From the NCBI GenBank assembly GCA_964464475.1, contig CAYXGG010000001.1, positions 23,174 through 87,173 of the forward strand: 64,000 nt of DNA, in the 5' to 3' direction. Source of the DNA: an uncultured Planctomycetales bacterium (GTDB lineage: Bacteria > Omnitrophota > Gorgyraeia > Zapsychrales > JAHFFX01). How positions within the stretch are numbered: the stretch's first letter is position 1; every line of letters starts with the position of its first letter. Positions 21,592-49,746 of the stretch are shown here, piece after piece. The notes beneath the pieces were generated by a model. It did no database searches and was not told where the DNA came from. It saw only the letters and a program-made list of their open reading frames with translations. The translations under genes and the position numbers were made by a program.

Positions 21592-21600
21592 TGCTATAAT
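21592..21600 (+). promoter_or_regulatory. Candidate sigma70-type promoter with an extended -10 (TGcTATAAT) upstream of the ATPase and pseudopilus operon. A ggagga ribosome-binding site lies at 21609-21614 and the TTG start at 21622.
   Basis: The sequence tgtgcTATAATccgaacacGGAGGAaattctcTTG was read directly. The -35 is weak (atagaa at 21572-21577) but an extended -10 TG is present. The 115-nt gap is the only sizeable intergenic gap before a run of 17 tightly packed genes. Confidence 0.4.
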
Positions 21601-21621
21601 CCGAACACGGAGGAAATTCTC

Positions 21622-23196
21622 TTGGTCGAATTACAATATTTTGAAGTTGGTCTAGTCCGATGTATCCGCGGATGTATTGTCATCGTTACCGGTTTTAAGA
21701 ACTGCCTGAATGGTCAGTTGGTCAAATTCGGATACGGAACTATCGGCATGATCGTTGGGTTTACCACTGAAGAAGCTTCTGTATTGATTATTAAAGAAAG
21801 CGAACGCATCAAAACCGGCGACCAGGCTATGGCCACGCTGGAACCCTTTCTCACTCCCGTTGGAGATCATTTTATTGGCCGCATCGTCAACGCGTTAGGG
21901 GAACCCATGGATAGCCTGGGGCCCATTGAAGCGAGCACGATGGCCCCGATTTTTATCGAAGCCCCATCGATTCTTAAACGCGCACAACTTCATAAGACAT
22001 TAGAGACAGGTTGTAAAGTATTGGACGGGATGATCCCCGTTGGATTGGGGCAGCGCGAATTAATACTCGGGGACAAAATGACGGGTAAGACCACGATTGT
22101 CACCGATGCGATATTAAACCAAAAGAATACCGGTCTCATTTGCATTTATGTGGCGATTGGAAAGGCGCGTTCTTCCTTAGCGCGCGTCGTCCAACTATTC
22201 CAGGATAATGATTGTTTTAAATATTCACTTATTGTTTCCGCGACAGCATCTTCATTGCCTGGCCAACAATATTTAGCCCCTTATGTGGCGTGCTCATTGG
22301 CAGAGTATTTTATGAATCAAGGCAAGGACGTATTGATCGGTTTTGATGACTTAATGAAGCATGCCTGGTGTTATCGCGAAATTTCACTGCTTTTGGGGCG
22401 CGCCCCGGGACGAGATTCGTATCCCGGCGACATTTTTTATCTACATTCCAAGTTTATTGAGCGCGCTGCTTTTATGAGTCCTGAAAACGGAGGAGGATCC
22501 ATCACTTTTTTGCCGATTGTGGAAATTTTGGAAGGCGATTTGACGGGATTTGTTCCCTCAAACCTTGTTTCCATGACGGATGGCCAAATTTATCTTAATG
22601 CTCAGCTTTTCGGTGAAGGTCAGCGTCCGGCTGTTGATTTGGGTTTGTCGGTTTCACGCGTCGGCAGTAAAGTCCAGTGGCCTGCGGTAAAGAAATTATG
22701 CGCCCCGTTGCGCTTGGAGTTTTTGCAATTTAGAGAATTGTTGCGGATTTCACGCCTGAAAACGACTGGACAAAGCGAAGAACAGCTCCAGAAATTGAAA
22801 AGTGGCGCCATCCTGACCGAACTATTAAAACAAGATAAAGACGCGCCGGTCCCTTCGGAGGCGCAGGTCATGATTTTTTATGCTTTTAACAAAAAGTTAT
22901 TGATGGAATTATCCATTCCTGAAGTCAATGAGTTTCAGGCTCACATTTTGGAATTCGCTGTGCAGCAAGATCCGCAATTGCTGAAAACGTTACGCGAGAA
23001 GAAAAGTTTGGATGAACAGATAGAAAAAGGGTTGATGGCGGTATTGAACAGTTATCTGGCTCAATTAAAAGGTAAGCGTTCGGGAGCTGAGTCCTCCGGG
23101 GCCAATAAGGATGAAGTCTCTCAGGACGTTTTGGACCAAGCGGTTTCCAAGGCCGCGGCTAAGGACAAGGAAGCCAAATCTGCCGGAAAATCGTAA
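21622..23196 (+). CDS. atpA: F-type ATPase alpha subunit (524 aa, TTG start).
   Basis: ELILGDKMTGKTTIVTDAILNQK matches ELIIGDRQTGKT in the F1-alpha P-loop region. Homology continues through CIYVAIGKA, ATASS, QYLAPY, SLLLGRAPGRD(S)YPGD(I)FYLHS(KF)IERAA and ITFLPIVE..GD...FVP(S)N(LV)S(M)TDGQI(Y)L...LF..G.RPAV. Bracketed residues show where this protein differs from my recalled E. coli F1-alpha. Confidence 0.9.
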   Translation: MVELQYFEVGLVRCIRGCIVIVTGFKNCLNGQLVKFGYGTIGMIVGFTTEEASVLIIKESERIKTGDQAMATLEPFLTPVGDHFIGRIVNALGEPMDSLGPIEASTMAPIFIEAPSILKRAQLHKTLETGCKVLDGMIPVGLGQRELILGDKMTGKTTIVTDAILNQKNTGLICIYVAIGKARSSLARVVQLFQDNDCFKYSLIVSATASSLPGQQYLAPYVACSLAEYFMNQGKDVLIGFDDLMKHAWCYREISLLLGRAPGRDSYPGDIFYLHSKFIERAAFMSPENGGGSITFLPIVEILEGDLTGFVPSNLVSMTDGQIYLNAQLFGEGQRPAVDLGLSVSRVGSKVQWPAVKKLCAPLRLEFLQFRELLRISRLKTTGQSEEQLQKLKSGAILTELLKQDKDAPVPSEAQVMIFYAFNKKLLMELSIPEVNEFQAHILEFAVQQDPQLLKTLREKKSLDEQIEKGLMAVLNSYLAQLKGKRSGAESSGANKDEVSQDVLDQAVSKAAAKDKEAKSAGKS

Positions 23197-23214
23197 TCGA
23201 ATTAAATAGTCGGC

Positions 23215-23520
23215 ATGTATAAAGGTATTTTTAAATTAGTGGTCATGAGTTCAAAATCCCTCATTTATGAAAATGAGGTTCATAGTGTTTTCTTGTCGGG
23301 GGATCGGGGAGAGTATGAACTTTTAGCGTACCACTATCCATTGGTGGGAGTTTTGACGCGGGGCAACATTATTATCGACTGGAAAGAAAGCATTCCCATT
23401 AAAGGCGGCATTGTTCGCTTTATGGCCAACGAATGTTCCATTATGGTCGAAGAGGAAGACCAGAAGACATTAAATGTTTCAACGCTGGATACCGTGAATA
23501 AAGAAGTTCGGAAAGAATAA
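23215..23520 (+). CDS. atpC: F-type ATPase epsilon subunit-like protein (101 aa).
   Basis: The size, its position after atpA, and an N-terminal beta-sandwich-like pattern (LVVMSSKSLIYENEVHSVFLSGDRGEYELLAYHYPLVGVLTRGNIII) resemble F1 epsilon (the ...P.G..GILP.H.P....L..G.. pattern). Confidence 0.5.
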   Translation: MYKGIFKLVVMSSKSLIYENEVHSVFLSGDRGEYELLAYHYPLVGVLTRGNIIIDWKESIPIKGGIVRFMANECSIMVEEEDQKTLNVSTLDTVNKEVRKE

Positions 23521-23522
23521 TC

Positions 23523-23747
23523 ATGCTCTTAGCTGAAACATTAATTATTATCGCGATCATGTTTATCGCGGTCATGGGGCCATCGGTCGTTATCGCAGTT
23601 TTGGGGTATGCGGTGATCAAGGCGCTGGCGCGCAATCCTTCCGCGGCGTCCAAGATATTTATGGGCATGGTGGTGATGTTAATTTTTGTAGAAGCTATTT
23701 CTATCGTCGCGATTCTGATTATTTTTCAATTGTTTGGGAGAGGATAA
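23523..23747 (+). CDS. atpE: F-type ATPase c subunit (proteolipid), divergent, 74 aa.
   Basis: It is a two-helix hairpin. The loop ARNPSAASK is similar to the ARQPE loop of c subunits. A conserved carboxylate sits in helix 2 (FVEAIS). The helix-1 glycine motif is degraded (AVMGPSVVIAVLG). Confidence 0.6.
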   Translation: MLLAETLIIIAIMFIAVMGPSVVIAVLGYAVIKALARNPSAASKIFMGMVVMLIFVEAISIVAILIIFQLFGRG

Positions 23748-23754
23748 CCCATAA

Positions 23755-23994
23755 ATGCATTTTGAATATTGGTACGAAGCGCTTATTTTTATCGGGATTT
23801 TCTTAGTTTTGATCCTCGTTCCCTGTGTAGCCGTGGGGATGATGGGTTACCAGATGCTGCATCGCGTTGGTAATGAACCGAGTAAAACCCCGTTCATTCA
23901 GCTGAGCATTTTCTGGCAGCTAGTGGTTCTGGAAGCTTTATCTTTTTTGTGTTTGATTATTTTTGCGAACTTTTTTGATCCGCATCATGGATAA
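23755..23994 (+). CDS. Second c-subunit-like proteolipid paralogue (79 aa).
   Basis: It has the same hairpin architecture as the preceding gene. Helix 1 is LVPCVAVGMMGYQML, the polar loop is HRVGNEPSKTP, and helix 2 carries an acidic residue (VVLEALSF). It is a clear paralogue of 23523..23747 (compare GY..xxxALARNPS with GYQMLHRVGNEPS). Confidence 0.45.
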   Translation: MHFEYWYEALIFIGIFLVLILVPCVAVGMMGYQMLHRVGNEPSKTPFIQLSIFWQLVVLEALSFLCLIIFANFFDPHHG

Positions 23995-24032
23995 AATATG
24001 GTCAATCATTCATCAAATCTAAGGAGACAGCG

Positions 24033-24803
24033 ATGCCTTCGCACAAAATGAATTTAATCGAGTTTATTTTCTCTTTTTTAGTCCTCATGGGTGTCGTGGG
24101 AGGCGTGGTTATCTTTTTTTTAAAAAAGTTATTATTCAAGGACATTGAAAATGCAAAGAATTCTCTCTACGAACAAGCGGAGGCGGCGCGTCTTAAACAG
24201 GCGGAATTAAACAAAAAAATTAAAGAAGCTGATGAGGAGCTGGCCAAGCGTCGACAAGAAGCCGACAATTTGACTAAGAAAATGCTTTCGGAGGCGGAAG
24301 ATAAGGTTAAATTGGAAAGAGAGTCGATGGTGAACAAAGCCCGCTTAGAAGGGGAGGAAATCATCACCAAGGCTCAGATGACCCGCGACAAAATTCGCAA
24401 GGAAATCGAAGTGGAAATGGAACTCAAAGCGATTGGTTATGGCGTTGAAATGCTCAATAGCATTATGGAAAAGCGAACGCGCGGTGCTTTAGACGCGCAG
24501 TTGGTGGAGGAATTTTTGCAGGGATTAGAGAAGGTGGAAATGGGACATATTAATTTAAGTAGTGGTGGTGTTGAGTTGACCACCACCCAGCCGCTAGAGG
24601 CTTCCTTAACAGCCAAGTTGCAGCAGTTGCTGAATACCAAATTAAAACAAACGATAGCTATCACTTATAAACAGGATCCTGCTATTATGGGCGGGGCTAT
24701 TTTAAGAATTGGCACATTAGGCTTAGACGGAAGTTTACGTAATATGATTAAAGAGGCGGGCGCGAAATATAAACAGCGAGTCGAGGGAGCTGCCGGCGCT
24801 TAA
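24033..24803 (+). CDS. atpF: F-type ATPase b subunit fused to a delta (OSCP)-like C-terminal domain (256 aa).
   Basis: There is an N-terminal single transmembrane helix (LIEFIFSFLVLMGVVGGVVIFFL) followed by a long charged helix typical of the b subunit. The C-terminus ITYKQDPAIMGGAILRIGTLGLDGSLRNMIKEA matches the delta C-terminal signature (DpsLiGG..vr.Gd.v.DgSvr..L). Confidence 0.6.
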   Translation: MPSHKMNLIEFIFSFLVLMGVVGGVVIFFLKKLLFKDIENAKNSLYEQAEAARLKQAELNKKIKEADEELAKRRQEADNLTKKMLSEAEDKVKLERESMVNKARLEGEEIITKAQMTRDKIRKEIEVEMELKAIGYGVEMLNSIMEKRTRGALDAQLVEEFLQGLEKVEMGHINLSSGGVELTTTQPLEASLTAKLQQLLNTKLKQTIAITYKQDPAIMGGAILRIGTLGLDGSLRNMIKEAGAKYKQRVEGAAGA

Positions 24804-24818
24804 AGGCGGACAATCTAC

Positions 24819-27162
<2,344 letters not shown>

Positions 27163-27164
27163 TT

Positions 27165-29369
27165 ATGACAAAATATGCCGATAAATTCTTGAGCGATTTG
27201 CTGGTAAAAAATGGGTTTTTCCCACCGGTCGAAGTTGAGCAGTTTCTTAAAGAGACGCTGTCAACCAACGACTCGCTCTATCATTATCTCGTCAAGAGGC
27301 AATTGATTTCTGAACATCAGATTGTTAGCGCGCTGTGCCTGGAGTTAAATTGCGATTTAATTACATTGAAAAATATTAGAATTGACCAGGTGGTCATTGA
27401 CCGGGTTCCGGTGAAGTTCGCTTGGTATTACAAATTTATGCCCGTTAAAATTGAAGATAAGTCCCTGACAATCGCTATTTCTATGCCTATGGAAGTCAAA
27501 GTTTTGGATGAAATCCGCACTTATTTGGGGCTGGATCCCAAAACTGTTTTTACCACGGACTCTGACCTCAACGAAGCTTTTAACAAGTACTATGGTTTGG
27601 CGGCGGAAACTATTGATAAAGTGCTGACCAAAGATCCCAGCCGCCGGCAGTCGGCGAACGAGTCGTCAGCCCACGCCGTGGAGGACCTGGAACATAAGTC
27701 CGAAGATGCGTCTGTTTCTCGACTTGTTAACCAGGTCATTTTGGAAGCTTACCAAAAACGCGCGACGGATATTCATATTGAACCTTATCGGAACAAAGTT
27801 CGGATCCGCTACCGGATCGACGGCGCTTTGGTCGATGCCAATTTGCCCTCAGAGATCAAACATTTGCTACTGCCGATGATTTCTCGAATTAAAATCATGG
27901 CTAATTTAAGTATTGTTGAGAAACGCTTACCTCAGGACGGTAGCGCAGCTGTGCGCGCTAAAGACCAGAGTTTGGATCTGCGGGTCTCGACGATCCCCAC
28001 TCCTTGGGGAGAGAGTATGGTGATTCGTCTATTGCCGGCTAAAGTGACTATGCTAACGCTGGAAAAATTAGGTATTGATGTCGATCATTTGCGGATTTTT
28101 CGTGAATTGGTGAAGAAGCCCCACGGGATTATCTTTGTTACCGGACCGACGGGTTCCGGCAAAACAACAACCCTCTACGCCTGCTTGCAGGAAATTAATT
28201 CCGAGCAGCGCAAAATTATTACTATTGAAGATCCCGTTGAGTATGAGATGGAAGGGATCACGCAAATCCAGGTCAATACTAAAGTCAATTTAGATTTCGC
28301 GGCGGGACTCAGAAGTGTGTTGCGGCATGACCCGAATATTATCATGGTGGGAGAAGTCCGTGATTTAGAAACGGCTGAGATTGCCATTCGGACTGCCTTA
28401 ACTGGTCATTTGGTTTTTTCAACTTTGCACACCAATGACGCTGCGAGTGGCGTGACTCGGCTAGTGGATATGGGGCTGGAGCCTTTTTTGGTAGCTTCGA
28501 GCGTGGATGCTTTTATCGCGCAACGATTGGTGCGAACGATCTGTCCTCATTGTAAGACGCAAGATGCTAAAGTCCCGGCGGATTTAATTCAAGAGATGGC
28601 GCACTCCTTAAAGATTGATACTCAGGAAGTGAAGGTTTTTAAAGGTTTGGGTTGTGAGCGATGTAACAAAACTGGTTTTTATGGCCGGACTGCGCTTTAT
28701 GAATTTTTGCTCGTCAGTGACGCGATCCAGGCGGCTATTTTGGAAAAGCCTCGCGCTGAATATATCCGTCAGTTGGCCATGGCTGAGGGGATGCAAACAT
28801 TAAGGCAAAATGGCTGGCGTAAAGTCATCTCGGGCGTAACAACGCCATCGGAAGTCATGAATGTGACATCGAGGGAAGAAGAGGTCGCCGTGACTAACCG
28901 GCAGGTGAATAGCGGCTCGTTTTCTAGTGAATCAAACATTCCTGAATCATTAAAAGAGTTTAAAGGCTTGGCGGATTTGTCATCGGACCAACGCAACCTT
29001 TCGTCCCGCGCGCACCCACGACTGAATGTGGAATTACCTATTAGGTTTAAATTGAATATTCATGACCAGGAGCAAACGGAGTCAGCGCAGGATGTGGAGC
29101 AGTCTGCATTGACGAGAGATTTAAGCGCGGGTGGCGTTTGTTTCTTATCGCGTTTTATTATTCCCGTTGGGACGGTCATCACGCTCAAAGTGCAATTGGA
29201 AGGTGAGTCGCGGAGTTTGAATTGTCTGGCTAAAGTCTGCCGGGTGGAACAGGATCATCAGGGTAATTGTTATTTTATCAGCGTGACGTATTTAGATATG
29301 GCCAGTGCGGACCGCGCTAAAATCAATCATTTCGTCGCGGCTAAATTAAAGCCCGAAAATAACCCTTAA
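27165..29369 (+). CDS. gspE: Type II secretion / type IV pilus assembly ATPase (GspE/PilB family) with a C-terminal PilZ c-di-GMP-binding domain (734 aa).
   Basis: There is an N-terminal GSPII_E_N-like domain, a Walker A motif (GPTGSGKTTTLYA), Asp box and Walker B (IIMVGEVRDLETA), and a tetracysteine motif CPHCK...CERCNK. The C-terminal roughly 115 aa contains the PilZ signatures RAHPR (RxxxR) and DLSAGG (DxSxGG). The PilZ segment lies at about 29007..29340. Confidence 0.85.
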   Translation: MTKYADKFLSDLLVKNGFFPPVEVEQFLKETLSTNDSLYHYLVKRQLISEHQIVSALCLELNCDLITLKNIRIDQVVIDRVPVKFAWYYKFMPVKIEDKSLTIAISMPMEVKVLDEIRTYLGLDPKTVFTTDSDLNEAFNKYYGLAAETIDKVLTKDPSRRQSANESSAHAVEDLEHKSEDASVSRLVNQVILEAYQKRATDIHIEPYRNKVRIRYRIDGALVDANLPSEIKHLLLPMISRIKIMANLSIVEKRLPQDGSAAVRAKDQSLDLRVSTIPTPWGESMVIRLLPAKVTMLTLEKLGIDVDHLRIFRELVKKPHGIIFVTGPTGSGKTTTLYACLQEINSEQRKIITIEDPVEYEMEGITQIQVNTKVNLDFAAGLRSVLRHDPNIIMVGEVRDLETAEIAIRTALTGHLVFSTLHTNDAASGVTRLVDMGLEPFLVASSVDAFIAQRLVRTICPHCKTQDAKVPADLIQEMAHSLKIDTQEVKVFKGLGCERCNKTGFYGRTALYEFLLVSDAIQAAILEKPRAEYIRQLAMAEGMQTLRQNGWRKVISGVTTPSEVMNVTSREEEVAVTNRQVNSGSFSSESNIPESLKEFKGLADLSSDQRNLSSRAHPRLNVELPIRFKLNIHDQEQTESAQDVEQSALTRDLSAGGVCFLSRFIIPVGTVITLKVQLEGESRSLNCLAKVCRVEQDHQGNCYFISVTYLDMASADRAKINHFVAAKLKPENNP

Positions 29370-29382
29370 CCAATTAAAGTCT

Positions 29383-30591
29383 ATGCCGCTGTTTAACTAT
29401 AAAGCTAAAAGACCGGACACTCAAACCGTGGAAGGACGAATCTCGGCGGAAAATGAAGAGATGGCTATAGAGCTATTGACTCAACAAGGATTACTGCCGA
29501 TTAAAGTTCTTCCCGTGGAAGACGGAGCTCAGGGGGTATTAGGGACTTTTGCCGATCAAGTGCATCGTAAGGACGTCTATTTGTTTTCTAAACAGTTGGT
29601 GAGTTTGCTTAAGGGCGGAGTTGCGCTTTTACAGGCTTTGGAGATTTTGGAACGGCAGACCAAATCCAGGGCGTTGAAGGGCGTGATTAGTAAAATAGTC
29701 GCGGCGGTTCGGGACGGTAATTCTTTTTCTCAGGCGATGAGTTCATTCCCCAAAGTATTTTCTCCGCTTTTTGTAGCGATGGTCAAGGTGGGTGAGGAAA
29801 GCGGAAATTTAAAAGATGTGCTAAGAAATGTGACTGAATACCAGCAACGGCAAGAAGAACTCGTGAATAAAGTTCAAGGGGCCTTGATTTACCCAACGAT
29901 CATGAGTTGTGTCGGTATGGGCACGGTGATTTTTGTATTGACCTATGTCATGCCCAAGATTGTGGGACTACTTAACGGTTTGAATACCGAGTTGCCTTGG
30001 CCGACCAAGATGCTGCTAAAGTTAAGCGGTTTGTTTGCCGGAAATAATTTGTGGATTGTGATTTGTGTTCTGATGTTAGGTGTTATTTTGACTTGGTGGA
30101 GTAATTTAGCCAAGCAGGACAAACTAAAAAGTTTTATTTCTTTGAAAATGCCGGTTGTGGGTGATTTGTTGACTCGAGTGGATATCGCGCGTTTTTGCCG
30201 CACGATGGAGATCTTGCTTAAAGGAGGGATCCCTATTTTGCGGTCGATTGCTTTGGCCACCCCGGTGGTTAACAACGCGATTCTTCGGCAAGATTTATCC
30301 CAGAGTTTGGAGGCCCTTTCCTCGGGGGACTCTTTAGCGCGCAGTTTACAAAATTCTCGCTGGTTGCCACCAATGATGCTGAGCCTTATTTCCGTGGGGG
30401 AGGAATCCGGGTCGCTGGCAGAAGCCTTGGGTGATGTCGCCGACATTTATGAGTCTGAAACGAATGAATGGCTCAAAATGATGACCACTTTACTGGAGCC
30501 ACTGATGATTCTGGTCATTGGCGGGGTGATTGGATTTTTGGTTATGGCGATGTTGTTGCCCATATTTCAAATTGATGTTTTTGCGCGTTAA
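29383..30591 (+). CDS. gspF: Type II secretion / type IV pilus inner-membrane platform protein (GspF/PilC family, 402 aa).
   Basis: It has two repeated GspF domains with three transmembrane segments. Conserved stretches include LLKGGVALLQALEIL and LLKGGIPILRSIAL. It lies immediately downstream of the secretion ATPase. Confidence 0.85.
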   Translation: MPLFNYKAKRPDTQTVEGRISAENEEMAIELLTQQGLLPIKVLPVEDGAQGVLGTFADQVHRKDVYLFSKQLVSLLKGGVALLQALEILERQTKSRALKGVISKIVAAVRDGNSFSQAMSSFPKVFSPLFVAMVKVGEESGNLKDVLRNVTEYQQRQEELVNKVQGALIYPTIMSCVGMGTVIFVLTYVMPKIVGLLNGLNTELPWPTKMLLKLSGLFAGNNLWIVICVLMLGVILTWWSNLAKQDKLKSFISLKMPVVGDLLTRVDIARFCRTMEILLKGGIPILRSIALATPVVNNAILRQDLSQSLEALSSGDSLARSLQNSRWLPPMMLSLISVGEESGSLAEALGDVADIYESETNEWLKMMTTLLEPLMILVIGGVIGFLVMAMLLPIFQIDVFAR

Positions 30592-30592
30592 G

Positions 30593-31414
30593 GTGGGTCA
30601 TTTTGGCGCCGGCGCGAGTGCAAAAGTCATTTTTCCGGTGCTGCTTATCATGGTCTGGACTGCTGTCAGTCAGGCTGACACGCTGGACTGGCAGGAGCAG
30701 CGCGGTGATCACTTTATTGTTTATTATTTAGAGGATAAAGATAGTCATCTCGCTAGTCAGACGATTATAAAGGCGGAAGAATTTTATCGGCAAATTGATG
30801 AAGATATCGGGTACTCGCGGTATTCTAATTTCTGGACTTGGGAAAATCGGGTCAAAATATTTATTTTTCCAAACAAGGATTTGTTCCGGCAGTACACCGG
30901 GCAGCCCGAGTGGTCCCACGGCATGGCCAGTAGTAATACCCGTTTGTTTGGAGCGCGGTTTATCGTGACGTATAGTGAACAGAAGAATTTCTTTGATGGT
31001 TTGCTGCCCCATGAAATGAGTCATTTGATGTTGCATGATTTTTTAGGTTCTTCGCAGGCTGCGCCACTCTGGTTCGATGAAGGAATGGCACAGTTGTTGG
31101 AAGAAGGCAAACTCGCTAAATGCGCGCCAATTGTTCGATACATGGCGCAAAAAGAAAAATTTTTTCCTTTCGAACAGTTGAATGATTTAGATATTCGCCA
31201 GGAGAGAAATAATAAATTGGCGGTTCTGTTTTATGCTCAAGGGGTTTCCGTGGTCGATTTTATAAAAAAGCAGTATGGCCGCGCGGCGTTACAGCAAATT
31301 TGCCGTGGGCTTAAAGAAGGCCGTTCTTTTGAAGAGGCGTTGCGGGTGGCTACGTCTCAGGCTGTCCCTACGATGAAAGAGCTCGAGCGTAAATGGCTCA
31401 ACGCCGTTAAGTAG
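30593..31414 (+). CDS. Secreted zinc metallopeptidase of the Peptidase_MA_2-like family (HExxH plus a downstream EG). A GTG start at 30593 is proposed.
   Basis: HEMSHLMLHDF...PLWFDEGMAQLLEEG matches the HExxH...EG.A gluzincin signature. There is an N-terminal signal-like segment AKVIFPVLLIMVWTAVSQA. The ORF-track start at 30530 overlaps gspF, and a GTG at 30593, right after the gspF stop, gives the signal peptide. Confidence 0.55.
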   Translation: MGHFGAGASAKVIFPVLLIMVWTAVSQADTLDWQEQRGDHFIVYYLEDKDSHLASQTIIKAEEFYRQIDEDIGYSRYSNFWTWENRVKIFIFPNKDLFRQYTGQPEWSHGMASSNTRLFGARFIVTYSEQKNFFDGLLPHEMSHLMLHDFLGSSQAAPLWFDEGMAQLLEEGKLAKCAPIVRYMAQKEKFFPFEQLNDLDIRQERNNKLAVLFYAQGVSVVDFIKKQYGRAALQQICRGLKEGRSFEEALRVATSQAVPTMKELERKWLNAVK

Positions 31415-31427
31415 TCAACTAAAAGGA

Positions 31428-31853
31428 GTGATTATGGTGGTCAATAAACACATCAAAGGTTTTACTTTAATTGAAATCCTGCTGGTCGTGATTATCATCG
31501 GCGCTTTGGCGGCGATGGTCATTCCCCGTTTTGCGGGGCGTTCCGAACAGGCCAAAAAAGCGGTGGCTCAGTCGGACATTGAAGCTAACTTAGCTACGGC
31601 GCTTAAGCTTTATGAATTAGACAACGGTAATTTTCCTACCACGGCCCAGGGATTGGAGGCGTTATTAACCAAACCGACCACGCCCCCGGTTCCCAAAAAT
31701 TGGAATACACCGTATATTGAGAAGGTCGCACTTGACCCTTGGGGGAGGCCTTATGTGTATGCATCTCCGGGCGATCATCGCACCGATTATGATTTGTATT
31801 CCAAAGGCAGGGATGAATCGAAAGAGGACGATGATATCGTTAATTGGAAATAG
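31428..31853 (+). CDS. gspG: Major pseudopilin (GspG family, 141 aa).
   Basis: It has a type IV prepilin N-terminus (KGFTLIEILLVVIIIGALAAMVIPRF) and a GspG core (QAKKAVAQSDIEANLATALKLYELDNGNFPTTAQGLEALLTKP ... LDPWGRPYVYASPG...DYDLYSKGRD). Confidence 0.9.
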   Translation: MIMVVNKHIKGFTLIEILLVVIIIGALAAMVIPRFAGRSEQAKKAVAQSDIEANLATALKLYELDNGNFPTTAQGLEALLTKPTTPPVPKNWNTPYIEKVALDPWGRPYVYASPGDHRTDYDLYSKGRDESKEDDDIVNWK

Positions 31854-31854
31854 A

Positions 31855-32277
31855 TTGTTTGTCCCTGGATTAGCCCTACCATCGGGAAGGCGGCGTCAGC
31901 CTAAAGGGATGACATTTTTGGAAGTGCTTTTGACAGCGTCGATCCTCTCTTTGGGGTTTGTTGGGGTTTATCGAATTTATTTTTCAATTTTTGACGCGTA
32001 TCATCATTTATCCTGTCGCTTACAGGCTTTTAATGTCATGAATGATCACTTAAGTCAGCTGCAGCGGTATCTTCAGGATAGTGGTCAGCTGCCTTTGGGA
32101 GGAGAGTCCCAGAGTCGGACTGTGACCATTGATCGGCAGGAAGTTGTTTTTTCTACACAGTCTCACTGGGAAAACGTTGATGATCTACCTAAAATATTCC
32201 GAGTGACGATTGAATTAAATTGGCGAGAACGTTTGGGCCCCAAACAGTTAACCCGAACCCTATTTCTTTCCGCCTAA
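31855..32277 (+). CDS. Minor pseudopilin / prepilin-like protein (GspH/I-like). Its start is uncertain, either TTG at 31855 or ATG at 31909.
   Basis: It contains the prepilin-type N-terminal helix G-MTFLEVLLTASILSLGFVGVY preceded by a basic leader (GRRRQPKG). The upstream 40 codons of the ORF-track call overlap gspG and were discounted. Confidence 0.55.
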   Translation: MFVPGLALPSGRRRQPKGMTFLEVLLTASILSLGFVGVYRIYFSIFDAYHHLSCRLQAFNVMNDHLSQLQRYLQDSGQLPLGGESQSRTVTIDRQEVVFSTQSHWENVDDLPKIFRVTIELNWRERLGPKQLTRTLFLSA

Positions 32278-32289
32278 CCATAACTATCC

Positions 32290-32919
32290 GTGCGCACTAT
32301 TTCCCATCCGTTATTTCGAAAGAAGAGTCATACGAGCGGTTTTACGTTGCTAGAGACTCTGCTGGTCGCGTCGTTAGTCTCGCTTGTGGGTGCCGCATTA
32401 TTTCAGGCGGTAACCAATGGATTAAAGCTTTGGCAACGCAGCCGAATCGTGGTTGTTGAGGAAGATGCGTTGATTTTTTTTGATAAATTGGCAAGAGATT
32501 TGGAAAACAGTGTGCGTTTTTCATTGCTTTCTTTTGATGGAAAGTCGCGCCGCTTGATTATTCCCACCCGGGTGCAGATTGAGCCTGAGCCCCGTTCGTC
32601 TTTTCGGCAGGATCAACTGACGACACAGCTGGGGCTCGTGGAGTATTCCTGGGACGCGGCGAGCCATGCGGTTATCCGACGACAATCTTCCTATGGAGAG
32701 GCTTTGGCGCGCAGCTTCGGTCCGCCTCAAACATTAGTGACTTCCGTCGACGCGATGCGTTTTCGCTATTTTGCGGATGGGGGAGATGGTAGGGCCTCCC
32801 CGCGCGAAGCCGTGAGCTATCGGCCCTTGGCGGTAGAGGTTCACCTAACGCTTAAAGATGAACGTGGCGAACGTAATCTTAGTCGATTCATTAACTTGCC
32901 TTTTGGGGGACAACCATGA
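32290..32919 (+). CDS. Minor pseudopilin (GspJ/PilW-like, 209 aa).
   Basis: The leader ends ...KKSHTSG and is followed by FTLLETLLVASLVSLVGAALF, a class III signal with Glu at +5. Its size and position between pseudopilin genes support the call. Confidence 0.6.
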   Translation: MRTISHPLFRKKSHTSGFTLLETLLVASLVSLVGAALFQAVTNGLKLWQRSRIVVVEEDALIFFDKLARDLENSVRFSLLSFDGKSRRLIIPTRVQIEPEPRSSFRQDQLTTQLGLVEYSWDAASHAVIRRQSSYGEALARSFGPPQTLVTSVDAMRFRYFADGGDGRASPREAVSYRPLAVEVHLTLKDERGERNLSRFINLPFGGQP

Positions 32920-33959
32920 AACGCTGTCTACGTTCCCGGCAAGGAAGTTTGCTGGTATTGGCTTTATGGTCTTTGGGGTTGTTGGCGGTGTTGGTGATCG
33001 CGATGGCATCCAATTTACGCCAGAAAATGAGTTTGTTGGGGCGATTGGAAAAACGAGAGACTACTCTGGCGGTCGCTCAGGCGGGGGTTCAGTACGCCAT
33101 GGCTTTTTTAAATAATGATCTGGAGAAGAATGGCTTTGATCTAACGCACAAAACAAAAATGAACCGGATGAATAATCCCCATCGCTTTAACGAGATCATA
33201 CTTCCGGATGGAGTTGCGCAAGTGAGCTATCAACTTTCCGTCGGCGGTGTTGAATCGGAAAAAATGTATGGTATCATGGATGAAGAAAGTAAAATAAATC
33301 TTAATCACGTCGACGAGAAGGTCATCCGATCCTTGCTGGGAGAAATTTTGAAATTAAGCGGTGATGAATTGGATCAATTATCAGTGAGTATTGCGGATTG
33401 GCGCAAAATTGGTTCCAGCGAACTGTCCGGATTTTATAGTGATGATTATTATCAAAATTTACGTTCGCCCTACCCGGTCAAGGACGCGGATTATGAACTA
33501 TTAGATGAATTGTTGCTGGTTCGGGGCATGTCTCAGGAGATTTATGACGTGGTGCGTTCCTATGTCACCCTCCTGGGAGATGGTCGGGTGAATGTTAACA
33601 CGGCTTCTGGACCAGTTTTGCGAGCTTTGGGGTTGGATTCATTGGTCGTTGATAAAATTTTAATAGCCCGCTCGGGGGCAGACGGCCAAGAAGCCACGGC
33701 CGATGATTTATTTTTTATGCGTCCTTACGATGTGGCGACCGACGTTCATTCGATAGTCCCTCTGAAACCTGAAGAAATTGCTCAGATTGAAGAAGTGAAT
33801 GCCCGCGGATTGCTGGGGATCCAATCCAGTTTTTATCGGATAGAAAGTTTCGGTCGTCTCTCGGGAGCCTCATCGGGGGAAAAAATCATGGCTATTTTTG
33901 ATGCCACACAGCGTAAATGCATCTACTGGCATCAGGAATCAACGGCGAGTTTAAATTAA
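32916..33959 (+). CDS. gspK: GspK-like minor pseudopilin (347 aa).
   Basis: The N-terminus RQGSLLVLALWSLGLLAVLVIAM is GspK-type (GSALvlvLw..llL..l). It has a large periplasmic domain. There is a 4-nt overlap with the upstream gene. Confidence 0.6.
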   Translation: MKRCLRSRQGSLLVLALWSLGLLAVLVIAMASNLRQKMSLLGRLEKRETTLAVAQAGVQYAMAFLNNDLEKNGFDLTHKTKMNRMNNPHRFNEIILPDGVAQVSYQLSVGGVESEKMYGIMDEESKINLNHVDEKVIRSLLGEILKLSGDELDQLSVSIADWRKIGSSELSGFYSDDYYQNLRSPYPVKDADYELLDELLLVRGMSQEIYDVVRSYVTLLGDGRVNVNTASGPVLRALGLDSLVVDKILIARSGADGQEATADDLFFMRPYDVATDVHSIVPLKPEEIAQIEEVNARGLLGIQSSFYRIESFGRLSGASSGEKIMAIFDATQRKCIYWHQESTASLN

Positions 33960-33961
33960 CC

Positions 33962-35476
33962 ATGTTCTCAGCGGAACCAGATAATATCAGTGTCAGTTTA
34001 GTGAATGATGTCCTGCGGGTCGCGGGAGTTCGTGCGTCCGGTTCTTCACTGGAAGTGGTTATTTGCGCAAAACGTGACGTTAAAGGGCAGACCGAGGATG
34101 AAATTGCTAAAACGCTTCGATCCGTGTTAACGGGAGTCAATTTTAAAAAGATTCCAGCTTATTGCCTGATTCCACCGTCAGCCGTCACGACCAAAAATAT
34201 CGAGATTCCTTCCAAAGATCCTACGGAAATCAAATCAATTATTAATCTTCAGGCCGGGAGGCATACCCCGTACTCTCGAGAAGAAATTCAAATGGGTTAT
34301 ATCAACATCGGAGTCTATCAAGTTAACTACACCAAGGTTTTGCTAGTCATCGCCAACCGCCAAGTTATTAAGACGCCGCTGCGTATCATGGAGGCGGCCG
34401 GATTAAGGGTGGAAAAGGTTCTTTTTTCTCCAGAAGGGATCGGGCATTTCTATGGAAAAGCTTTAGGCTTTTCCCGGCACGATTCCCCCATTGGTATTAT
34501 TGATGTCGCCCAGGACGGGACCGATTTTATGATTGTGCTTAAAGGTATTGTTATTGCTTGCCGGCATATCCCTTGGGGCGCTTCGCAATTGGCTCAAGGA
34601 CAAAGTCATTTGAAAAAGCTAGTTGAAGAAATCCGTTTGTCGGTGGAAGCGTACATTAATGAAGATATTGATAAGCCTCCGCTACAGTATTTATTGACAT
34701 CGAAAGATCCCTTAGTGGCCGCTTTGGTCGAGCCTTTGTCGGTCCAATTATCAGTTCCGGTAAAGATTGAAGCGTATCGGGAAAAAATGCGTTTGACCGG
34801 TCCCGTTCAAAAAATATTGGCACCAATGGCGTCGGATTCCTTCTTGGATATTTTTGCTGGGGTTTACCAGCCTGCCGAAGCGCAGATCGATTTGCTACCT
34901 GAAGAAACCAAATTGCAACGCAGCATTCAATCCCAGGGCCACGAAGTCATCAAACTCGGCGCGTATGTCATTACCATTCTTATTTTCTTGACCTGCTTGT
35001 TCTTCGGTGAAATCTATTTTAAGAATACATTCTTAACTAAATTAAATGCTACTTATAGCAAACACCATGATCAGGTGGCGCAGCTTGAGAAGATTGCCGC
35101 GCGTACACGCATCGTCAAAGATTTTTTTAACAGTCGTATGACTACCTTAGAGGCGACTAAAGAGCTCTATAGGCTTTTACCGCAAGAAATATATCTGGAA
35201 AGCTTTTTATTGGATGATAAGGGAGCTTTAAGCATTAAAGGTATTTCCGAATCCATGTCCAAGGTTTTTTCTTTGGTTACGGCATTGGAAGAATCGAGTC
35301 TTTTTAAGAATGTTAAGACTCAGTCGACCAGCGCTAAGAAAGAGCGGGGCAAAGACGTTGCGGCTTTTGAGATTATTTTTAAGCTTGAGACTGCCAAGGA
35401 TGATCCGTCTCAGGTTAAAGGTGATACTAAAAAAGAAAATGCGAGTACTGAGGCCTCACGAGAGAATAAATCATGA
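33962..35476 (+). CDS. PilM-PilN fusion / GspL-like assembly protein: a cytoplasmic actin-like domain, one transmembrane helix and a periplasmic domain (about 505 aa).
   Basis: A PilM-like segment ...LLVIANRQVIKTPLRIMEAAGLRVEKVLFSPEGIGHFY is present. The internal transmembrane helix is LGAYVITILIFLTCLFFGEIYF, followed by a periplasmic region. An ATG 2 nt after the gspK stop was chosen over the overlapping upstream start. Confidence 0.55.
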   Translation: MFSAEPDNISVSLVNDVLRVAGVRASGSSLEVVICAKRDVKGQTEDEIAKTLRSVLTGVNFKKIPAYCLIPPSAVTTKNIEIPSKDPTEIKSIINLQAGRHTPYSREEIQMGYINIGVYQVNYTKVLLVIANRQVIKTPLRIMEAAGLRVEKVLFSPEGIGHFYGKALGFSRHDSPIGIIDVAQDGTDFMIVLKGIVIACRHIPWGASQLAQGQSHLKKLVEEIRLSVEAYINEDIDKPPLQYLLTSKDPLVAALVEPLSVQLSVPVKIEAYREKMRLTGPVQKILAPMASDSFLDIFAGVYQPAEAQIDLLPEETKLQRSIQSQGHEVIKLGAYVITILIFLTCLFFGEIYFKNTFLTKLNATYSKHHDQVAQLEKIAARTRIVKDFFNSRMTTLEATKELYRLLPQEIYLESFLLDDKGALSIKGISESMSKVFSLVTALEESSLFKNVKTQSTSAKKERGKDVAAFEIIFKLETAKDDPSQVKGDTKKENASTEASRENKS

Positions 35477-36192
35477 TCCAACAGTGGTTTGTTAAATTAT
35501 CCGCGGGAGAGCGCAAACTTTTTTATGGGGCGGCGGCTTTTTTATTGTTGGCGGTCATTGACCGTTCTTTCTGGGGGCCGGTCCGGGCGCAATTAAAACA
35601 AGTTGAAGAACGCATTCGGCACGAAGAAGGTAATATCCGGCAGAATTTGCGATTGCTAGCGTATAAAAAACGCATACTTGAAGAACAGGACGTATTCTCA
35701 TCTTATTTTATCCAGAAAGTAAGTTCGGAAGAAGAAATTATTGCCGAGTTTCTCAAGAAAATTGAAATCATGGCTACTGAAGCCAATATTAATTTAATCA
35801 AAGTGACGCCTTCAGAAGGTAAGCAGCGCAAGGGTTTTAAAGAGTATCTTGCGAGTTTGGAATGCGCCGGAAATATGGAACAGTTAATTAAATTTTTGCA
35901 TTTAATTGATGGATCTAAAGATTTATTGCGGACTTCCAAATTAGCGCTGCTACCTAAGAAAGGGTCCGAGACCAACGAAGTCAACGCGACGATGGCCATC
36001 ACCAAGGTGTTGATTGATCCTTTAGAAGGTATGCCGATGACTTCGAAAAAGAATAAGACGATTCGACTGGAAGATCTCGGTATCCAGGGCACGATGAATG
36101 TCCCCGTTAAGATGGAGTCCAACGTTCCCCCGGAGCCAAATGCGAAACCCAAAAGAGGAAATGTCGATGCGGTTAAGTTTTCGCAAGATTAA
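35473..36192 (+). CDS. PilO/GspM-like bitopic inner-membrane assembly protein (239 aa).
   Basis: It has a short cytoplasmic N-terminus, one transmembrane helix (LFYGAAAFLLLAVI) and a coiled-coil plus periplasmic domain. Its position after the GspL-like gene with a 4-nt overlap supports the call. Confidence 0.45.
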   Translation: MIQQWFVKLSAGERKLFYGAAAFLLLAVIDRSFWGPVRAQLKQVEERIRHEEGNIRQNLRLLAYKKRILEEQDVFSSYFIQKVSSEEEIIAEFLKKIEIMATEANINLIKVTPSEGKQRKGFKEYLASLECAGNMEQLIKFLHLIDGSKDLLRTSKLALLPKKGSETNEVNATMAITKVLIDPLEGMPMTSKKNKTIRLEDLGIQGTMNVPVKMESNVPPEPNAKPKRGNVDAVKFSQD

Positions 36193-37021
36193 AGTTTCCA
36201 TTATCTTTCTCATCGGGCTGCTGGCGTGGGCTGCGGGTGTTGCGGTCCCCGTTGCCGTTGCGCAACAAGAAATCCGGGACATCTATCAGCAGGCTGAGAC
36301 CGCGTTTAACGCTGGTGAGTATCAGAAAGCGATCAACCTTTTTGAAAAGGTTTTGGACCTGAATCCCAAATTTGCTCCCGCTTACAACGCTATTGGGCTT
36401 TGTCATAAGCAGATGAACACGCCATTGCCGGAAGTAATTTGGTATTTTAAGACAGCCCTAGAATATGATCCCAATTTTGTTGATGCCAGTAGTAGCCTTG
36501 CCAAGGCTTATTATGGGTTAGGCCAATTCGATAATGCCGAAAAAGTTTGTTTGGATGGACTGAAAATTAATCCGGACCACCTGGATTCAAAGCTGTCGTT
36601 GGGTTGGATTTACTTGCTGGGGAAGGGGAAACCTAAAGACGCGATTCCTTATTTCAAGGATGTCTTTGATCAGGCTCAGCTACCTAATGCGGCGCTCGGG
36701 CTGGGCATGGCGTATTTTATGAGTGATGATCGCGTGGGGGCCATGGATATGATTACGGCGCTGAAAGAATTAAAACAGATTGATATGGCGACACAGCTCG
36801 AGAATATGGTGCGTGGCAATGAGTTTAATAAGGAAGAAGAAGGTCGGCAGTTAGTTCATCCTGTTGAGCGCCCACCGCCTCGCGTTGCCCCGGGGGGAAC
36901 GACTATCACGGGTGCTAGCGGCGTGATGCGCGTGCGTTTACGCGGTAAACTCATCAATATGGGAAACGCGGAGATTCAAGGTTCCGCCAGTTCGGGGAAT
37001 CCTTCCGCAAGTTCGTATTAG
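36161..37021 (+). CDS. Secreted tetratricopeptide-repeat (TPR) protein. It may be a pilotin- or PilF-like protein; that is speculative.
   Basis: The signal peptide is MSMRLSFRKIKVSIIFLIGLLAWAAGVAVPVAVAQQ. TPR-like helices are present (YQKAINLFEKVLDLNPKFAPAYNAIGLCH; ALEYDPNFVDASSSLAKAYYGLGQFDNAEKV). It is the last gene of the + strand run. Confidence 0.55.
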   Translation: MSMRLSFRKIKVSIIFLIGLLAWAAGVAVPVAVAQQEIRDIYQQAETAFNAGEYQKAINLFEKVLDLNPKFAPAYNAIGLCHKQMNTPLPEVIWYFKTALEYDPNFVDASSSLAKAYYGLGQFDNAEKVCLDGLKINPDHLDSKLSLGWIYLLGKGKPKDAIPYFKDVFDQAQLPNAALGLGMAYFMSDDRVGAMDMITALKELKQIDMATQLENMVRGNEFNKEEEGRQLVHPVERPPPRVAPGGTTITGASGVMRVRLRGKLINMGNAEIQGSASSGNPSASSY

Positions 37022-39799: not shown

Positions 39800-39875
39800 G
39801 GGCCATTAGCTCATCTGGTAGAGCAACTGACTCTTAATCAGTGGGTGGCAAGTTCAAGTCTTGCATGGCCCACCA
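39800..39875 (+). tRNA. tRNA-Lys (anticodon CUU).
   Basis: A cloverleaf was read by eye. The acceptor stem is GGGCCAT/ATGGCCC, the D arm is GCTC-ATCTGGTA-GAGC, the anticodon stem is ACTGA/TCAGT with loop CT-CTT-AA, and the T arm is GGCAAGTTCAAGTCTTGC. A 3' CCA is encoded. Confidence 0.85.
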
Positions 39876-43395: not shown

Positions 43396-44721
43396 ATGCG
43401 CCGTCTTTTTCAGATAAGGAACGGGTGGCTTCAAAAAAAATCGGGTATCGGTATTCTGTATTTATTGGTGTTTTCTTTTTGTCAGCCTGCTTATTCCCAG
43501 CCTGGCATCTTCGATGGTGATCCGCAGTTGGAATTACTTTATGAAAAATTGCTGAGTAATAATTTAGAAATCAAAGCCGCCCAGGAAAAGTGGGAAGCGA
43601 TGAAAAAACGCGTTCCTCAGGCTGCGGCTTTGCCAGACCCCACTTTTACGTATTCGGTCATGGGGCCGGACATCATGACGATGAGAGGACCACAGGAAGA
43701 GATTTATGAGGGGGAACAAATGGTTCCGTTCCCGGGGGAATTGGCGGAGCGCAAAGCCATTGCGAAGGAAGAAGCTGCCGCCGCGTTGGCCAAGGCCAAG
43801 GCAAGTCAACAAAATGCGATCTTAGCCTTAGTGGAAACTTATTACGATTATTATTATTTGAAAAATTCGTTAACGGCGACTAAACAATTAAAAGAACTTC
43901 TGCAAAAAAATGAGTCGGTCGCCCAAGCGCGCTATGCCTCTCAGGGGAGCGCTCAGCGCGAAGTGACCCACGCCCAGACGGAAACAGCGTCTATTTTAGA
44001 GCGGATTATTGTTCTGGAGCAGCAGCTGGCGACAACAGAGCTTTTCTTGCAGAAGCTCCTTAATGAAGCGGGGCCCTTGCCACTGCAGCCTATTCTTGAT
44101 CCGGTTATCCCCAACCTTTCGTCTTCCCTTGAAGAGTTAACCCAATTGGCTTTCATTAACCGTCCTGAGATCGTAGAAGCGCAAGCCATGGAAAATAAAG
44201 AAAAGCACATGAAAAAGATGGCTGTTTACGAGAATGCCCCGGATATTAGTGTAGGTTTTCAATATTACCGGATTGGTTCGGGTGAGACCTCTGATCCAGA
44301 AGATGGACAAGACGCGTGGATGATCCCCATCAAAGTCACCGTACCGCTTTGGCAAAATCGAATTATCGCCGGAATTAGTGAAGGAACGCGCAACCTTAAC
44401 GCGGCTAAAGCCAGTTTGCAAAATGAAAAAAATTTGGGTCAATATGAAGTCGCGAAGGCTTATTTTCAATTTCAATCCCGCAAACAGGTCGTTGACCTTT
44501 ATCAAAATGCCTATTTGCCTCAAGCGGAAACGGCTTATAAATCCGATCAGGCTGGTTATGAAGCGAACCGTTCGGAGCTAACCGCCTTATTAGAAAGTGA
44601 GCGCGCTTATTTGAATACAAAGCTAGGGTATTATGAAGCGTTGGCGGAGGCCATGAAAAGTTTTGCTGCGTTAGAACGTTCTGTGGGTGTTTCCTTGATG
44701 ACGAAGGAGGTCTTAAAATGA
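43396..44721 (+). CDS. cusC: Outer-membrane efflux protein (TolC/OMF family, CusC-like, 441 aa).
   Basis: It has a signal peptide and duplicated OEP-type coiled-coil and beta-barrel repeats. It is the first gene of a tripartite RND operon. Confidence 0.75.
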   Translation: MRRLFQIRNGWLQKKSGIGILYLLVFSFCQPAYSQPGIFDGDPQLELLYEKLLSNNLEIKAAQEKWEAMKKRVPQAAALPDPTFTYSVMGPDIMTMRGPQEEIYEGEQMVPFPGELAERKAIAKEEAAAALAKAKASQQNAILALVETYYDYYYLKNSLTATKQLKELLQKNESVAQARYASQGSAQREVTHAQTETASILERIIVLEQQLATTELFLQKLLNEAGPLPLQPILDPVIPNLSSSLEELTQLAFINRPEIVEAQAMENKEKHMKKMAVYENAPDISVGFQYYRIGSGETSDPEDGQDAWMIPIKVTVPLWQNRIIAGISEGTRNLNAAKASLQNEKNLGQYEVAKAYFQFQSRKQVVDLYQNAYLPQAETAYKSDQAGYEANRSELTALLESERAYLNTKLGYYEALAEAMKSFAALERSVGVSLMTKEVLK

Positions 44722-46124: not shown

Positions 46125-46136
46125 ATTCTTCGGTAT

Positions 46137-49487: not shown

Positions 49488-49499
49488 GCAGGAGGACTC

Positions 49500-49691: not shown

Positions 49692-49746
49692 TAATTTTTC
49701 ATGAGGAAAGATTGAAGGCGTGTTAGGTCAGAAAGGAGCTGTTGCA

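Follow-up and report, generated by a model that had tools for sequence, protein, structure and literature searches.

F-type ATPase genes without subunit a, linked to pseudopilus genes and a giant repeat protein in Omnitrophota and other PVC phyla

The DNA considered here, a stretch of 64,000 nucleotides (hereafter the window) from contig CAYXGG010000001.1 of assembly GCA_964464475.1, an uncultured bacterium of the Omnitrophota (Gorgyraeia, Zapsychrales), carries a compact run of genes that opens with those of an F-type ATPase and continues into those of a pseudopilus machine resembling type II secretion systems (T2SS), with a giant repeat protein and a 448-residue membrane protein, p448, encoded just upstream. 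We consider it likely that the ATPase is a dedicated, ATP-hydrolysing motor that has no subunit a and serves an apparatus made of the pseudopilus and the giant adhesin, as a module of Omnitrophota and of other phyla of the Planctomycetota-Verrucomicrobiota-Chlamydiota (PVC) group. An earlier sequence-only reading of this DNA knew of no described system of this kind. Its claim of novelty was wrong: the core linkage was already published in 2023, on bioinformatic grounds, by Seymour et al. 2023 (Nat Microbiol, PMC10066038), of whose locus type the window is a member, and T2SS-like loci beside giant genes were described by West-Roberts et al. 2023 (bioRxiv 10.1101/2023.11.21.568195).

The run consists of 17 genes on the + strand, from alpha to a gene for a tetratricopeptide repeat (TPR) protein, spanning 21622-37021. 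A map of open reading frames (ORFs) and profile searches reproduce the tight spacing that the sequence-only reading had reported: all internal gaps are of 38 nt or less, the largest, of 38 nt, lying between the c-like gene (c2) and the b/delta gene, and two pairs of genes overlap by 4 nt (at 32916-32919 and 35473-35476). Where starts are ambiguous, in-frame candidates are found 1-3 nt past, or a few nt ahead of, the preceding stop. The junction of the two machines is as close as claimed, with the TAA of beta ending at 27162 and the ATG of gspE at 27165, 2 nt lying between them, and a check for a terminator at this point found none that was convincing; the sole hairpin nearby, at 27140-27155 and ahead of the beta stop, was rejected as weak (-10.2 kcal/mol, z = -1.8) and without a U-tract. 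A consensus scan gave no excess of promoter- or terminator-like sites over shuffled sequence (26 terminator-like sites, vs. 20.7 +/- 4.2 expected by chance). The AT-rich gap of 115 nt leading from p448 to alpha contains a promoter-like element, TGcTATAAT, a putative extended -10 promoter at 21592-21600, which the sigma-70 consensus scan did not list because its -35 spacing is wrong. Co-orientation alone carries little information, since nearly all genes of the window lie on the + strand; the linkage is judged to be above chance because it is conserved in relatives.

Those relatives were gathered by a scan with the beta protein, one genome being taken per species, which gave 79 loci onto which all proteins of the window were mapped. 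Some 60 Omnitrophota species genomes, with beta 69-86% identical, have the complete gene order of the window, the common order being giant-p448-alpha-epsilon-c-c2-b/delta-gamma-beta-gspE-gspF-(peptidase)-gspG-pseudopilins-gspK-pilMN-gspM-TPR, often closed by a convergent STT3 gene (found at the same position in L021, L051, L056, L072 and L075). The claimed physical linkage is real: of the 63 loci that have enough sequence, 62 have gspE no more than 1 kb downstream of beta, and over 72 related loci the gap between the two has a median of 24 nt, with 22 of them at 3 nt or less. In the sole exception, L047, a same-strand ORF of 1149 aa without a Pfam match (L047:4984-8433) is inserted between the two genes. 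On the upstream side, p448 directly precedes alpha in 44 of 46 loci, and a homologue of the C-terminal 1046 aa of the giant protein directly precedes p448 in every Omnitrophota locus with enough flank (34/34). The Peptidase_MA_2 gene is present in 44 loci, those of other PVC phyla included, and the TPR gene is kept at the end of the run in 24.

The same partners also recur in other arrangements. In loci labelled Verrucomicrobiota, Victivallales, Kiritimatiellia or 'PVC group' (L058-L066, L070 and L079; beta 56-59% identical) the order is p448-alpha-alpha'-epsilon-c-b/delta-gamma-beta-gspE, followed by gspF-peptidase-gspG onward. One Omnitrophota locus, L078, with beta 49% identical, has a canonical-like order, c-b/delta-alpha-gamma-beta-epsilon-gspE-gspF, and places the Peptidase_MA_2 gene upstream of c. 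On a metagenome contig, L081, a series secretin-TPR-... leads to a protein of 1851 aa with a C-terminal p448 module, after which come the ATPase genes in the order epsilon-c-b/delta-alpha-alpha'-gamma-beta-gspE-gspF-gspG. Four gene orders with the same partners are strong comparative evidence for a functional unit, and the giant gene, p448 and the genes of ATPase and pseudopilus have been kept together as a single locus. This is what the sequence-only reading had proposed in joining the giant gene and its presumed anchor to the run, and no locus was found to carry a subunit a.

Of particular interest is the composition of the ATPase, whose genes stand in the window in the order alpha-epsilon-c-c2-b/delta-gamma-beta. 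The two large subunits are close to the canonical type. Alpha scores 509.4 bits against the NCBIfam model TIGR00962 atpA (cutoff 484.45) and beta 534.7 bits against TIGR01039 atpD (cutoff 462.85), and with canonical F1 chains of the PDB the two give 420-454 bits; beta reaches 453 bits with canonical F1 beta, vs. 341 bits with the beta of the M. mobile G1-ATPase. The Walker A motif and Arg finger of alpha are kept in 54 of 55 relatives, the Walker A of beta in 70 of 71 and its GERxREG motif in all 71, and, judged from sequence, the alpha3-beta3 core is catalytically intact. Alpha does not have the first 20-27 or so canonical residues (its residue 3 aligns to canonical residue 22-30 in PDB alignments), so that the segment which binds the N-terminal domain of delta is absent. 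In the loci outside Omnitrophota alpha is followed by a second copy, alpha', in which SIVG replaces the SRVG motif of the Arg finger; such tandem paralogues, 40-45% identical, occur in L058, L061-L063, L065, L066, L070 and L079 (e.g. L061:4532-7475) and at L081:15707-18635. The missing Arg finger suggests a heterogeneous alpha/alpha'/beta hexamer in these loci.

The smaller subunits are recognisable and reduced or divergent, none passing its NCBIfam cutoff. Epsilon (38.7 bits vs. a cutoff of 67) is 75-110 aa long in all loci and is without the C-terminal helical domain, whose helices inhibit hydrolysis in bacterial enzymes. The b and delta subunits are fused into a protein that begins with a single transmembrane helix, continues as a coiled coil and retains of delta/OSCP no more than its C-terminal part, the match to PF00213 covering no more than profile positions 105-167 of 172, its C-terminal third; its best NCBIfam match is the b of N-ATPases (TIGR03321, 50 bits vs. 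225), the canonical b giving 22.7 bits vs. 65.5 and delta 27.2 vs. 57.5. Gamma scores 53.7 bits with TIGR01146 (cutoff 194); it has 482 homologues, and among the best 120 listed all that carry a source name are from Omnitrophota/Omnitrophica. No protein of the cluster is better conserved than the c subunit (c1; 23.1 bits vs. 44), which has 72-93% identity within Omnitrophota, an invariant RNPSAA loop and, in 58 of 60 relatives, the helix-2 glutamate ('FVEAIS'). In two relatives the carboxylate is lost, Glu being replaced by Gln at L065:2519-2734 and by Val in L076 (about 4729-4944). The adjacent c2 aligns to the c1 family over 72 columns (hhalign probability 98%, E = 3e-13); it is found only in Omnitrophota loci, its carboxylate is not conserved, and the loci of other PVC phyla are without it.

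The cluster contains no gene for subunit a (atpB), whether in the window or in any of the four gene-order variants, and none of the four has any other multi-transmembrane protein in its ATPase cluster. A hidden, divergent a subunit was considered and rejected: apart from GspF, with 3 transmembrane helices, and the convergent STT3 protein, no protein has more than 2 hydrophobic segments.

The second half of the run encodes the components of a T2SS-like pseudopilus machine. Pfam matches identify GspE, GspF, GspG, J- and K-like pseudopilins, PilM_2 and PilN in one protein (as in GspL; one transmembrane helix, residues 344-362) and GspM, which is weak in the window and passes the T2SSM cutoff in the orthologues from other PVC phyla. 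GspE scores 582 bits with the GspE model and GspF 350 bits with TIGR02120, both just short of the NCBIfam cutoffs, and with the PilB model GspE gives 565 bits, again below the cutoff. PilT, PilO/PilP and a PilA-type major pilin gave no matches in the window, and the major pilin fits the T2SSG family and not the type IV pilins, so that the secretion part is T2SS-like rather than a classical type IVa pilus (T4aP). A GspD/PilQ secretin, GspC and the prepilin peptidase (GspO) were likewise not found in the 64-kb window, beyond which lies the region 5' of the giant gene; a secretin gene does stand upstream in the variant locus L081. In the window GspE has an N-terminal MshEN and a C-terminal PilZ domain, the latter present in about one-third of relatives as judged by GspE length alone. 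Both domain families are known to bind cyclic di-GMP (c-di-GMP), for which reason control of GspE by this messenger is likely. The oligosaccharyltransferase of the STT3/PglB type encoded at 37018-39714 might glycosylate the pilins or the giant protein; its membership in the system is uncertain.

The AlphaFold2 model of p448 (mean predicted local distance difference test score, pLDDT, 86) shows, after a signal peptide, a unit of beta-sandwich and three-helix bundle that occurs twice, a long helix of 65 residues, a C-terminal transmembrane helix with the conserved pattern TW.II...F...F..W..RS, and a basic tail. It has no match in Pfam or NCBIfam, and fold searches gave no informative one. A profile search gave 963 representatives at 50% clustering, some of which are proteins of 1167-2029 aa that end in the p448 module, such as the 1851-aa protein of L081 and one of 2029 aa in L080. 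Such gene fusions hint at joint action of p448 and the large protein encoded upstream of it, in keeping with the idea of an anchor. The giant ORF is built from a 13-residue (39-nt) unit, G-I/V-N-W-x-D-(L/I)-x-x-(L/M)-S-x-x, repeated hundreds of times; its sole Pfam matches, Lysostaphin_N and Ntox33, are driven by the repeats and were not taken as functional. The last 1046 residues contain no transmembrane segment.

These observations make it likely that the F-type complex is not the cell's chemiosmotic ATP synthase and would run instead as an ATP-hydrolysing motor, or serve as an anchor, for the adjacent apparatus. The known ion path is lacking, since there is no subunit a. The GspE/F/L/M platform would polymerise GspG-type pseudopilins, probably gated by c-di-GMP through MshEN and PilZ, and the apparatus as a whole would deploy or operate the giant repeat protein in attachment to, or predation on, other cells. 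How the rotor might be coupled to the pilus or fibre is a matter of speculation, the candidates being the conserved transmembrane helix of p448 and the GspF/L/M platform. A more daring version, which we think rather unlikely, is that rotation of the c-ring moves no ions and is passed mechanically across the membrane to work the pseudopilus or the giant fibre. The C-terminal transmembrane helix of p448 might then lie in or against the c-ring, much as Voa1 and ATP6AP1 are lodged within the c-rings of V-ATPases, and turn a periplasmic shaft, as in GldM/PorM, and the rotation would operate the pseudopilus or wind and extend the fibre of the giant protein. If this were true, it would amount to a new class of ATP-powered rotary surface machine in Omnitrophota and other PVC bacteria.

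Several points weigh against a motor dedicated to the appendage. Co-transcription and physical association are deduced from comparative genomics; in the window the 115-nt gap with its promoter-like element parts p448 from alpha; and L047 tolerates an insertion of 3.7 kb between beta and gspE. By the curated cutoffs alpha and beta count as genuine atpA and atpD products, the strictly conserved carboxylate of c would suit an ion-translocating ring and is not obviously needed for a mechanical role, and a subunit a may be encoded elsewhere in the genome. The main rival takes up these last points: an ordinary chemiosmotic F1Fo synthase, its subunit a encoded elsewhere, in a conserved neighbourhood that is functionally neutral. 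Alpha and beta indeed resemble canonical F1 more closely than they do any of the specialised F1-like ATPases, and an F-type ATPase (KEGG module M00157) is counted in the respiratory chain of 37 of 39 Zapsychrales species (PMC10066038), the order to which the syntenic loci L011 and L069 belong. We nevertheless find such a synthase improbable. Subunit a is missing in four independent gene orders although c and b stay in the cluster, and the C-terminal domain of epsilon, the N-terminus of alpha and the N-terminal domain of delta have all been lost. Adjacency to gspE and p448 is kept across phyla and through rearrangements, at 49-57% beta identity, where neutral synteny is not expected; furthermore, Omnitrophota have a separate respiratory clade (PMC10066038) and widespread V/A-type ATPases (2026 preprint).

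Two other explanations keep the ATPase within the apparatus and give it different work. F1 and the ATPase complex of type III secretion systems (T3SS) are homologous, and a non-rotary export or unfolding ATPase, like FliI/FliH/FliJ, might feed the giant protein or the pilins, c and b being mere anchors. Alpha and beta do match FliI/SctN models at E of about 1e-50, and a protein of more than 6700 aa, whose gene is always adjacent in Omnitrophota, needs help with export. The scores of 170-195 bits are far from the cutoffs of 380-620, though, and an alpha/beta heterohexamer with an Arg finger, accompanied by gamma, epsilon and c, makes up a full rotor and not a homohexamer; that no protein of the cluster is better conserved than c1 is hard to square with a mere anchor, and we regard the whole proposal as very unlikely. 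Least probable of all is an ATP-driven ion pump that energises the membrane locally for the appendage, with c2, the b-delta helix, p448 or GspF standing in as an unrecognised stator for a. The conserved c1 carboxylate, the conserved transmembrane helix of p448 and the additional c-like hairpin of Omnitrophota would suit such a pump; against them, the loci of other PVC phyla have no c2 and c2 itself does not conserve the carboxylate, neither b-delta nor p448 shows a conserved arginine within the membrane, and no protein of the cluster has the horizontal-helix architecture of subunit a. A dedicated motor without subunit a remains the favoured reading. The proposal of a dedicated appendage system with a repurposed rotary ATPase, made in the sequence-only reading, is well served by the linkage, the missing a and the departures from a housekeeping enzyme, all of which fit it; as to function, the argument is one of comparative genomics.

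Much of the background to this locus comes from PMC10066038, which described 'symbiotic', non-respiratory F-type ATPase/type-4a-pilus loci across all classes of Omnitrophota. Among 111 Velamenicoccia species, 56 were found to have the ATPase genes adjoining clusters for type-4a pili, the two clusters lay within 10 kb of each other in 57 of 66 contigs, and a role in attachment to or motility on host cells was proposed. The MBPbin6, Cal1bin1 and n*bin metagenome-assembled genomes (MAGs) of that study have loci fully syntenic with the window. Its phylogeny separated 'respiratory' and 'symbiotic' alpha clades in Omnitrophota and grouped the symbiotic alpha with Mycoplasma types 2 and 3. That grouping is not backed by similarity scores, the alpha of the window giving 509 bits with atpA, 404 with MMOB1660 and 288 with MSC_0619, and PDB scores also favouring canonical F1; it may reflect long branches. 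L011 and L069 are themselves genomes of that study (Velamenicoccia/Zapsychrales) and carry the T2SS-linked cluster without a, and some of its 'respiratory' F-type calls may be this cluster, because alpha and beta pass standard thresholds. In the readable text and supplements of PMC10066038 no mention was found of the missing a or the c paralogue, of the truncations of epsilon, delta and alpha or the b-delta fusion, nor of the p448 module, other PVC phyla or the four gene orders.

West-Roberts et al. 2023 reported T2SS-like loci beside giant genes of Omnitrophota, conserved across the phylum. A 2026 preprint on 176 complete genomes found alpha and beta in 125 and a recognisable gamma in only 30, as well as subunits of V/A-type ATPases in 70-99% of most of the class Gorgyraeia, and speaks of 'an incomplete F1F0 chemiosmotic apparatus'; a divergent cluster such as that of the window would account for these figures. 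For one 95%-complete genome, the accessible part of the annotation has KEGG orthology (KO) assignments for alpha and beta and for V/A-type subunits, and no KO for a, b, c, gamma, delta or epsilon. On the cluster's expression in Ca. Velamenicoccus archaeovorus, the literature searched yielded nothing specific.

If the ATPase is part of the apparatus, it would be a further rotary ATPase recruited to the cell surface, after those of type III secretion and the F1-like ATPases of Mycoplasma, and the first such case to keep the c-ring while discarding the ion channel. That would bear on the means by which Omnitrophota, ultrasmall predators or parasites, fasten on their prey and attack it, and on how platforms of T2SS and type IV pili are energised. 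It also has a consequence for annotation, in that alpha and beta passing 'ATP synthase' cutoffs can give genomes the look of a capacity for chemiosmotic synthesis by an F-type enzyme that they may lack. The locus in any case offers structural and biochemical studies a clearly delimited set of genes that many uncultured lineages have kept.

The features of the locus are collected in Table 1. A scan of 19.5-40 kb with Rfam gave nothing but the one tRNA listed there. Beyond the locus, 43396-52010 of the window holds a CusCBA-like efflux operon of the resistance-nodulation-division (RND) type (outer-membrane factor, HlyD-type adaptor with heavy-metal-binding domains, AcrB-family pump), followed by proteins with YHS/TRASH domains and a YHS-ArsP permease, and is probably a copper/silver resistance island. 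A set for the beta-oxidation of fatty acids (acyl-CoA ligase, thiolase, FadB-type hydratase/dehydrogenase, acyl-CoA dehydrogenase) occupies 52061-60952, and 60961-63045 encodes a single protein with cyclic nucleotide-binding (cNMP), AAA_31 and patatin phospholipase domains. Among the scanned loci, L077 was excluded from the family as a gammaproteobacterial delta-alpha-gamma-beta cluster without gspE. This very divergent F1-like cluster (L077:2422-6615, in a MAG), consisting of a delta-like gene, alpha, gamma and a beta 34% identical to that of the window, is without c, b and a, has three proteins of no family ahead of it and does not have gspE next to it; it scores alike against canonical and Mycoplasma-type models.

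Table 1. Features of the ATPase, pseudopilus and giant-protein locus and its immediate surroundings, in window coordinates
Feature	Position	Strand	Remarks
Giant repeat protein	6..20141	+	>6711 aa visible; N-terminus outside window
p448, type-I membrane protein of 448 aa	20160..21506	+	no Pfam or NCBIfam match
Putative extended -10 element TGcTATAAT	21592-21600	+	direct reading of sequence
Ribosome-binding site GGAGGA	21609-21614	+	direct reading; ahead of TTG start of alpha
F1 alpha	21622..23196	+	TTG start; TIGR00962 atpA 509 bits
Epsilon, N-terminal beta-sandwich domain only, 101 aa	23215..23520	+	PF02823 over residues 6-79
c subunit (c1), 74 aa	23523..23747	+	PF00137; helix-2 glutamate
c2, paralogue of c subunit, 79 aa	23755..23994	+	hhalign to c1 family; no Pfam match
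b-delta fusion, peripheral stalk	24033..24803	+	PF00430 residues 15-89; PF00213 residues 180-241
Gamma, divergent	24819..25688	+	PF00231 69 bits
F1 beta, catalytic	25690..27162	+	TIGR01039 atpD 535 bits
GspE/PilB-type assembly ATPase	27165..29369	+	T2SSE E = 4e-131; MshEN and PilZ matches
GspF/PilC platform protein	29383..30591	+	two T2SSF domains
Peptidase_MA_2 protein, signal or anchor sequence	30575..31414	+	PF13485
GspG-type major pseudopilin	31428..31853	+	T2SSG E = 1e-31; N_methyl; prepilin motif KG|FTLIE
Minor pseudopilin	31831..32277 (start 31831 or 31855)	+	N_methyl; prepilin motif KG|MTFLE
GspJ-like minor pseudopilin	32290..32919	+	N_methyl; weak T2SSJ match
GspK-like minor pseudopilin	32916..33959	+	T2SSK_1st; 4-nt overlap with preceding gene
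PilM-PilN fusion (GspL architecture)	33917..35476 (start probably 33962)	+	PilM_2 and PilN matches
GspM-like protein	35473..36192	+	weak T2SSM match; 4-nt overlap with preceding gene
TPR protein, N-terminal transmembrane helix	36098..37021 (start probably 36167)	+	TPR families
STT3/PglB-type oligosaccharyltransferase, 898 aa	37018..39714	-	PF02516; convergent with run
tRNA gene	39800-39872	+	Rfam RF00005, 67 bits; just past start of STT3 gene

Comparison with known systems places the locus closest to the 'symbiotic' loci of Seymour et al., which are the same thing: divergent F-type genes beside genes for type IV pili or T2SS, with giant ORFs in the same genomes. In the window, too, the closest relatives are Omnitrophota (beta 69-86% identical) and the ATPase and pilus genes lie within 10 kb of each other; what PMC10066038 covers is the phylogeny of alpha and beta and this 10-kb co-location. 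The loci of West-Roberts et al. resemble the window in that the giant gene is flanked by genes of the gspE/gspF type. There, gspD, rcpC and a rotamase gene stand ahead of the giant gene and ATPase subunits are not mentioned, whereas in the window the T2SS-like genes come after the giant gene, joined to those of the F-type ATPase, and no secretin is present. Compared with T2SS and T4aP in general, the window adds the Peptidase_MA_2 and TPR proteins and a GspE with both MshEN and PilZ.

With the canonical F1Fo the window shares equivalog-level scores for alpha and beta, recognisable gamma, epsilon, c, b and delta, and the carboxylate of c. It differs in having no a, no C-terminal domain of epsilon, no N-terminal domain of delta and no N-terminus of alpha, in the fusion of b with delta, and in an unusual gene order whose last gene abuts gspE translationally. 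The N-ATPase, which Dibrova et al. reportedly defined in 2010 as an alternate F1Fo with the operon atpDCQRBEFAG, including AtpQ and AtpR, is likewise a second and divergent enzyme of the F type, whose long b has a delta-like C-terminus; it keeps subunit a, adds AtpQ and AtpR, and has another gene order. Membership of that family was rejected (TIGR03324 454 vs. 750, TIGR03305 455 vs. 752, TIGR03321 50 vs. 225; no genes for AtpQ, AtpR or a), as was membership of the FliI/SctN family, on the scores given above.

A functional precedent is found in Mycoplasma, where the Type 2 F1-like X0 ATPase drives gliding by means of giant leg proteins and Type 3 is needed for the MIB-MIP system of antibody cleavage (Beven et al. 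2012; Toyonaga et al. 2021; Berlureau et al. 2025). These, like the ATPase of the window on the reading favoured here, are F1-derived ATPases moved from bioenergetics to a cell-surface system. Their clusters comprise seven genes, in which Fo is replaced by unrelated proteins of 3 and 12 transmembrane helices, with no c or b/delta. Scores in the window are well below the cutoffs for either type: 404 vs. 600 and 419 vs. 850 for MMOB1660 and MMOB1670, and 288 vs. 520 and 394 vs. 570 for MSC_0619 and MSC_0618, and the window was not assigned to them. In contrast to both, it keeps recognisable c, b-delta, gamma and epsilon, only a being absent, has no partner of 3 or 12 transmembrane helices, and couples its ATPase genes to a T2SS-like pseudopilus system in a diderm.

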